64,000 nt of DNA from Escherichia coli (GCF_050920415.1 NZ_CP169309.1), one strand, 5' to 3'. Positions 57,749-57,906 are shown, numbered from the stretch's first letter. The notes: a model not told the origin generated them from the letters alone. Numbers and translations: made by a program.

Positions 57749-57906
57749 ACTCTTTACTAGAGGAGGCGCTAGAAAGTTTTCTACCGATCCTAGAGACTTC
57801 TAGGATCGGTAGAAAACTTTCTAGCGCAACCCTAAAAGTACTCAATAAGTTAGTGTCTGGCGAAACGCTCGACAAGGCTATAAATCAAAGCCTAACGCTA
57901 AAGAGT
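57749..57906 (-). ncRNA. Candidate retron msr-msd non-coding RNA
   Basis: 8-bp inverted repeats ACTCTTTA (57749..57756) and TAAAGAGT (57899..57906) as candidate a2/a1; on the transcribed strand a1 is followed by GCG (TTAGCG, candidate branching G); msd-like perfect 29-bp-stem hairpin with GACT loop at 57766..57827; AT-rich promoter-like sequence upstream at about 57930..57990. Confidence 0.6.

Follow-up and report, generated by a model that had tools for sequence, protein, structure and literature searches.

Retron-Sen2 (St85) of Salmonella enterica serovar Typhimurium, a toxin-antitoxin system directed against phages, was described in 2003, and its mechanism was dissected in 2020-2022. The effector RcaT is toxic alone, and the reverse transcriptase (RT) together with mature msDNA constitutes an antitoxin that binds RcaT, with the RT conferring specificity for the cognate toxin. 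In Sen2-type systems the template is removed by RNase H, which also determines where synthesis terminates, and Exo VII trims the 5' end to give a mature, unbranched hairpin DNA. Overexpressed Dam, or Dam supplied by a phage, methylates the GATC duplex in the msDNA hairpin and thereby triggers the toxin (bioRxiv 10.1101/2020.06.22.160242); RecE degrades the mature msDNA, and the toxin set free in either case results in abortive infection. In Salmonella, msDNA is lost and the toxin freed when msrmsd is deleted or the branching G mutated, internal msd deletions reduce RcaT levels, and Sen2 works after transfer into E. coli.

Other described retrons resemble the element considered here to different degrees. 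Eco9 of E. coli NILS-16 belongs to the same family and has the same architecture; it is a tripartite toxin-antitoxin system dependent on RNase H and Exo VII, with RecE as a trigger, and its RT, RcaT and msd are reported to be only 49%, 43% and 58% identical to those of Sen2. Eco1 (Ec86), a type II-A3 retron with solved structures (7v9x, 8qbk and others), carries an effector of the same nucleoside deoxyribosyltransferase (NDT)-like class, which aligns with the present one at E = 1e-10, but its RT is far less similar, scoring 132 bits with the present RT where RTs of the I-A/II-A1 type score about 275, its a1/a2 repeats are longer, and its msDNA retains the 2'-5' branch, in contrast to Sen2-type msDNA, which Exo VII trims. 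The type I-A retrons Eco7 (Ec78), Eco4 (Ec83) and Vch1 (Vc95) have the ncRNA class IA/IIA1 in common with the present element (Mestre et al. [quoted passage not shown] The same msr model also matches loci in Vibrio cholerae and Photorhabdus.

The window, that is, the whole stretch of 64,000 nucleotides of Escherichia coli DNA that was analysed, contains at positions 57749-57906 on the minus strand what its sequence very strongly suggests to be the msr-msd gene of a type II-A1 retron (class assignment according to Mestre et al. 2020), namely the E. coli copy of Salmonella retron-Sen2. A reading of this DNA from the sequence alone had proposed a candidate msr-msd template directly upstream of an effector-RT pair on the same strand. 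The proposal is borne out by matches to the Rfam msr and STnc400 families above their gathering scores, by the St85-family effector and RT genes downstream and by the identity of the ncRNA to that of Salmonella; strand and order also proved right, with promoter, a1, G, msr, msd hairpin, a2, effector and RT following one another on the minus strand. No feature of the sequence speaks against this interpretation. The parts of the locus, in this order, are as follows.

57913-57941, minus strand: sigma-70-type promoter, with TTGAAA (57941-57936), a 17-nt spacer and CATAAT (57918-57913), 10 of 12 positions matching the consensus.
57899-57906, minus strand: a1 arm, 5'-ACUCUUUA-3', at the 5' end of the msr RNA; an inverted repeat that closes the MFE structure and forms conserved helix 1.
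57898, minus strand: candidate branching (priming) guanosine, the first base 3' of a1 as read from the sequence; G in 12 of 13 aligned relatives.
57837-57906, minus strand: msr, the ncRNA portion excluded from reverse transcription, matched by RF00170; folded stem-loops at about 57893-57875 and 57874-57854, with covariation in stem-loop 2.
57758-57842 (3' end approximate), minus strand: msd, the putative msDNA template, its 5' end placed by the a2/G arrangement and the TAGA tetranucleotide.
57766-57827, minus strand: hairpin of msd and msDNA, with a 29-bp stem and a 4-nt loop, recognised as an inverted repeat, in the fold and by compensatory changes.
57749-57756, minus strand: a2 arm, 5'-UAAAGAGU-3', preceded by the unpaired G57757; recognised as an inverted repeat, in the fold and by conservation.
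57709-57748 (hairpin 57716-57748), minus strand: intrinsic terminator directly after a2, a 13-bp stem with the core CGAGCAA/UUGCUCG followed by a U-run.
56710-57672, minus strand: effector (toxin) gene, RcaT-like, 320 aa, intact; PADLOC NDT_II-A, NCBIfam STM3845_fam.
55775-56710, minus strand: retron RT gene, 311 aa, intact; PADLOC RT_II-A, NCBIfam retron_St85_RT.

The two protein genes match models of the St85 family, and both are named 'retron St85 family' in the RefSeq annotation. The effector matches the PADLOC profile NDT_II-A at 3e-90 over residues 5-309 and the NCBIfam equivalog STM3845_fam, 'retron St85 family effector protein', with 265 bits against a cut-off of 100. Its sequence indicates an N-terminal NDT-like domain and a C-terminal DNA-binding domain; E107 corresponds in the alignment to E106, the catalytic residue of the Ec86 effector, for which solved structures exist, and D296, the residue repeatedly altered in Salmonella RcaT suppressor mutants, is present as in the Salmonella protein. 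The ATG of the RT gene overlaps the effector stop codon by 1 nt. The RT scores 1e-123 with PADLOC RT_II-A and 353 bits (cut-off 235) with NCBIfam NF038233, retron_St85_RT (St85 family RNA-directed DNA polymerase), and its motifs NAxxH (NAQIH, residues 85-89, with N85, A86 and H89), YADD (183-186) and VTG (234-236) are invariant or nearly so among 15 relatives.

Within this family, the element closely resembles Sen2. The sequence from a1 to a2 is identical at 158 of 158 positions to two Salmonella loci (L086 and L087), and the effector and RT are each 96% identical to a Salmonella counterpart (P0143 in the case of the effector), which amounts to 12-13 amino-acid changes per protein; the RT of L087 is in turn 99% identical to that of serovar Typhimurium. 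Both proteins share 90%-identity clusters with proteins of Salmonella enterica, serovar Typhimurium included. Gene order (msrmsd-rcaT-rrtT), the TAGA start of the msDNA, the single GATC duplex in the hairpin and the chromosomal site, beside an integrase gene at the 3' end of mnmE, are common to the two, and the whole island from the mnmE 3' end through the integrase gene to the retron is collinear with that of Salmonella at 96% identity. Besides the amino-acid changes, differences concern the host, small changes in the terminator loop and the promoter spacer, and the sequence beyond the island, which is tnaCAB here and mdtL in Salmonella. A search of the supplements of PMC8989520 and of full texts did not find the published msDNA-St85/Sen2 sequence as text, and the identity to Sen2 accordingly rests on Salmonella genome loci. 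Assignment to Eco9 was considered and rejected, the proteins of Eco9 being 43-49% identical to those of Sen2 while those of the present element are 96% identical and accompanied by an identical ncRNA. As a side observation, the Salmonella proteins in the RT and effector clusters are mostly 'partial' and encoded where contigs end, and therefore many draft Salmonella assemblies break inside the 30%-GC retron; low coverage of AT-rich DNA is one possible cause.

The element is rare in its present host. The segment 55600-58000 of the window (2401 bases compared) is 100% identical to E. coli strain MFDS1022581, where the island lies between tnaCAB and mnmE. The full element occurs in 1 of 5426 complete E. 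coli genomes, and a further 160 genomes contain only an msr-like match from related retrons. The phage collection yielded only a match of 69% identity at 8% coverage, to a Vibrio phage, and the plasmid collection yielded no match.

The surroundings of the retron show the remains of a mobile element. The tyrosine integrase gene (57998-59217, minus strand) is frameshifted into a 259-aa ORF and upstream fragments and is a RefSeq pseudogene; the interval that matches it has no called gene in either L086 or L087 from Salmonella. A C4 antisense RNA is found at 52923-52974 on the plus strand (72 bits), with its a1b1 target motif at 53032-53116 on the same strand (46.9 bits, barely above threshold), near a toprim gene, a RepA-type helicase pseudogene, an ash fragment and the frameshifted integrase gene. 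The island looks like a decayed P4-like satellite or integrative element with the retron as cargo. A 17-nt direct repeat, ATACAGAAGCTGGA[A/G]AA, is present at 52617-52633 on the tnaC side and at 59548-59564 in the mnmE 3' end, 6.9 kb apart; these copies probably represent attachment-site repeats delimiting the island. An 18-mer that we take to be the SGI1 attB sequence has a single match with one mismatch at 59538-59555, also in the mnmE 3' end, which serves as a lead only. The motifs GGACACAAAAA and GTGTCCATGAG recur close to either end of the island as well as upstream of the integrase gene (52685-52709, 59230-59244, 59295-59309 and 59405-59429) and may represent arm-type integrase binding sites. 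Two further RNA genes were noted. An EFASI RNA (Rfam RF02957, 90 bits, gathering score 51) lies at 55042-55172 on the minus strand, about 600 nt downstream of the RT gene, and EFASI RNAs about 0.6-2.3 kb downstream of the RT are found also in Lelliottia (L083, 5574-5704) and Serratia (L084, 7293-7422). The enterobacterial sRNA STnc410 (Rfam RF02060, 187 bits) at 20902-21059 on the minus strand is unrelated to the retron.

This decay raises the question of whether the retron, although of Sen2 type by descent, is an inactive relic whose hairpin has no current role. The frameshifted integrase, the RepA helicase gene with its internal stop, the remaining fragment of ash and the rarity of the full element among E. 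coli genomes would all be compatible with such a relic. However, both retron ORFs are full-length with all catalytic residues kept, promoter and terminator are intact, and the ncRNA has zero changes relative to Salmonella. Flanks that differ by 3-5% beside an unchanged ncRNA indicate ongoing purifying selection, and the capacity of Salmonella Sen2 to function in E. coli likewise speaks against inactivity in this host. We therefore regard a relic as unlikely and an intact Sen2-type retron as the preferred reading.

Two curated RNA families divide the ncRNA between them. Rfam RF00170 (retron msr) matches 57837-57906 on the minus strand over its full length (1-69) with 74.2 bits against a gathering score of 52, and RF02058 (STnc400) matches 57710-57834 on the same strand, also over its full length (1-125), with 122.9 bits against 80. 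On the plus strand STnc400 reaches 70 bits, under the threshold of 80, a score attributed to the palindrome; weak matches to Rfam microRNA and snoRNA families are below their gathering scores and were set aside as spurious, the long palindrome being their cause. In the STnc400 model a long hairpin is followed by CUAGUAAAGAGU and then by a terminator hairpin, which together correspond to a St85-type msd, a2 and terminator. Since Rfam lists 57710-57834 as 'sRNA STnc400' (type 'Gene'), with an end at an intrinsic terminator that implies a discrete RNA, the hairpin might alternatively be the structural core of a free-standing, trans-acting regulatory small RNA rather than a template for reverse transcription. 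This is very improbable, given that the STnc400 match directly adjoins that of the retron msr family and is placed between a1 and a2, that in the related loci scanned STnc400 is always accompanied by a retron RT and effector, that the loss of msDNA and freeing of the toxin in the Salmonella msrmsd and branching-G mutants assign the region to the retron, and that a retron ncRNA fully accounts for the small-RNA signal. The RefSeq/PGAP annotation of NZ_CP169399.1 has no feature over the msr-msd region (5215905-5216165, corresponding to 57700-57960 of the window).

The retron ncRNA is recognisable by its structure as well. An inverted-repeat search returned the 29-bp perfect stem and the 8-bp repeats bracketing it with exactly the coordinates and sequences given in the sequence-only reading: the arms 57766-57794 and 57799-57827, 29 nt each, are 100% complementary around a 4-nt loop, and the 8-nt repeat ACTCTTTA (57749-57756) / TAAAGAGT (57899-57906) is 100% complementary across 142 nt. 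Among close inverted repeats of at least 16 nt, 57766-57827 is the only perfect long hairpin in the 64-kb window, the remaining four being imperfect, overlapping palindromes with 74-94% complementarity; by our own arithmetic, a perfect 29-bp hairpin is expected by chance in 64 kb about 64000 x 4^-29 or roughly 1e-13 times. As RNA, the hairpin has a folding energy of -54.7 kcal/mol, compared with -15.8 +/- 3.4 for shuffled sequences (z = -11.4). Structure prediction for the 158-nt a1-to-a2 RNA (minus strand, 57906 to 57749) gave -77.9 kcal/mol (z = -8.95), with an MFE fold in which a1/a2 closes the structure around two small stem-loops at the 5' side and the long hairpin at the 3' side. The trinucleotide GCG that had been placed after a1 on the transcribed strand is read directly as G-C-G on the minus strand. 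In the Ec86 ncRNA, a1 is likewise followed by G, the overall arrangement being a1, G ... G, a2. GATC occurs on both hairpin arms, with 57786-57789 paired to 57804-57807, and forms exactly one duplex Dam site.

Conservation was examined in family loci comprising at least 80 from species-representative genomes and six obtained via protein look-ups; one Salmonella locus (L082), which ends at the RT gene and has no ncRNA, was replaced by loci found via the effector protein. Of 20 loci scanned, 16 have an Rfam msr match that precedes the effector-RT pair or immediately precedes the RT; two of the 16 are near-duplicate Salmonella loci. A consensus structure for 13 distinct aligned ncRNAs contains 41 pairs. 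Compensatory double changes occur in 21 of these, compared with 6-11 in controls with the pairing partners slid by 1-3 columns; 95% of structure cells are paired, compared with 36-48% in the slid controls, and none of 500 shuffles reaches any of the observed measures. The msr stem-loop 2 (helix 2) covaries among relatives. In the msd helix (helix 4), compensatory changes are seen at 19 of the 24 pairs that the consensus structure assigns to it, and it is therefore conserved as a single-strand structure and not as a duplex sequence.

These data bear directly on the remaining ways to explain the palindrome. Its position between an integrase gene and the retron genes, together with the fact that long palindromes can be operators or recombination sites, would fit a terminator or attenuator, or a protein-binding palindrome, for instance an operator or a site used in recombination by the neighbouring integrase. 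Inspection of the sequence nevertheless upheld the earlier remark that no U-tract directly follows the 29-bp hairpin, on either strand, and a proper, separate terminator lies 18 nt beyond; moreover, the stem sequence varies freely with its pairing kept through the 19 compensatory pairs, and the attachment repeat of the island is elsewhere, at 52617-52633 and 59548-59564. We give this explanation hardly any weight. Still less credible is a small plus-strand protein, for a mechanical ORF with a GTG start (57688-57963, 91 aa) does cover the region, but relatives show non-triplet loop indels and substitutions that preserve base pairing rather than codons, and two curated RNA families on the opposite strand explain the sequence.

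For the retron ncRNA itself, the shortness of the 8-bp a1/a2 stem had been named as the weak point. Taken alone, the repeat is within chance, because the inverted-repeat search finds several other complementary pairs of 8-9 nt nearby; it becomes significant because it is kept in relatives. The objection does not stand, as the same helix, CTCTTTA/TAAAGAG, is found in 13 of 13 aligned members and helix 1 is 99% paired, with six pairs that never vary and an outermost pair that covaries (AU 9, UA 2, GC 1). Shortness of the a1/a2 stem is a conserved trait of this family.

The promoter offers a complementary view of this trait. The end of its -10 hexamer is separated from a1 by 6 nt, and -35-like and -10-like hexamers stand at the same distance from a1 in 14 of 14 loci. 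The predicted transcription start is A57906, with which a1 begins, or a base adjacent to it, so that there would be no RNA that could lengthen the a1/a2 stem. In the paper on retron-Vmi1 of Vibrio mimicus, the promoter is likewise located 6 bp upstream of msr.

On the opposite side, the U-tract terminator between a2 and the effector gene (57716-57748), which is absent from the sequence-only reading, has a hairpin of -15.6 kcal/mol (z = -4.7) that is also the 3' hairpin of the Rfam STnc400 model; the consensus scan assigns this hairpin to the plus strand. A hairpin and T-run after a2 were recognised in 12 of 13 related loci, whose flanks were read by eye, the exception being a Glaciecola locus (L009). 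Because the terminator separates msd from the effector gene, we infer that co-transcription of effector and RT depends on read-through: most transcripts would end at the terminator and provide an excess of ncRNA, and read-through would supply the effector and RT messages. Such an arrangement agrees with the lower RcaT levels seen after internal msd deletions in Salmonella.

Taken together with the Sen2 literature, the sequence suggests how the E. coli copy may operate. The promoter, ending 6 nt upstream, would start the transcript at a1, most RNAs would stop at the terminator after a2, and the RNAs that read through would also carry the effector and RT genes. According to general retron biology, a1 would then pair with a2, and the RT would bind the msr stem-loops, prime from the 2'-OH of G57898, copy msd including the hairpin and stop near the msr/msd border. 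The first base copied would be the A at 57758, and the predicted msDNA, of plus-strand sense, would begin at T57758 with 5'-TAGA (5'-TAGA|GGAGG...), in agreement with TAGA as the tetranucleotide at the cleavage site of msDNA-Sen2 (PMC11701397). A 3' end at 57842 would give 85 nt; folded as DNA, this molecule has -36.1 kcal/mol (z = -14). The later steps are extended from Sen2 to the present copy because the ncRNA is identical and the proteins are 96% identical. Processing by RNase H and Exo VII would leave a hairpin DNA of about 85 nt, the RT-msDNA complex would hold the RcaT-like effector inactive, and Dam methylation of the GATC duplex or degradation of the msDNA by RecE would free the toxin and halt growth of the infected cell. 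The prerequisites of Sen2 toxin-antitoxin behaviour that can be read from sequence, namely E107, D296, the GATC duplex and the predicted TAGA 5' end, are present.

No other stretch of the island is as conserved as the ncRNA. Compared with Salmonella, it is identical at 158 of 158 positions (100%), with flanks at 94.5-97%, and compared with Lelliottia (L083) at 156 of 158 (98.7%), with flanks at 77-83%. Given that the ncRNA is far more conserved than its flanks, while the stem sequence turns over freely deeper in the family, it is conceivable, if on balance doubtful, that in the Sen2 sub-clade the exact msDNA sequence, and not its shape alone, has been selected as a sensor surface (for example, through the GATC site), and that the conserved terminator between msd and toxin sets the excess of antitoxin RNA over toxin. 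One of the two differences in Lelliottia, in the 3' arm of msd, changes GGATCGG to GGAGCGG and breaks the GATC duplex; GGAGCG is likewise found in more distant members (L003, L006, L008 and L002). These variants may reflect natural losses of Dam sensing.

The element as such is not new: its RNA and protein families, its mechanism and its triggers have been published, and the families are curated in Rfam, NCBIfam and PADLOC. What the present locus adds is modest and consists of a rare E. coli host, an unannotated ncRNA, exceptional conservation of this ncRNA relative to its flanks, and a promoter and terminator conserved in position. The ncRNA lacks RefSeq annotation, which means that genome annotation misses a key component of the system. 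Selection on a sensor surface and a terminator-set excess of antitoxin would, if true, be refinements of a known system. With 12-13 substitutions per protein and an unchanged ncRNA, the E. coli allele is a natural variant set usable in studies of toxin-RT specificity. The integrase-retron defence island at mnmE is common to Salmonella, Lelliottia and a rare E. coli lineage, and thus to several genera at one attachment site.
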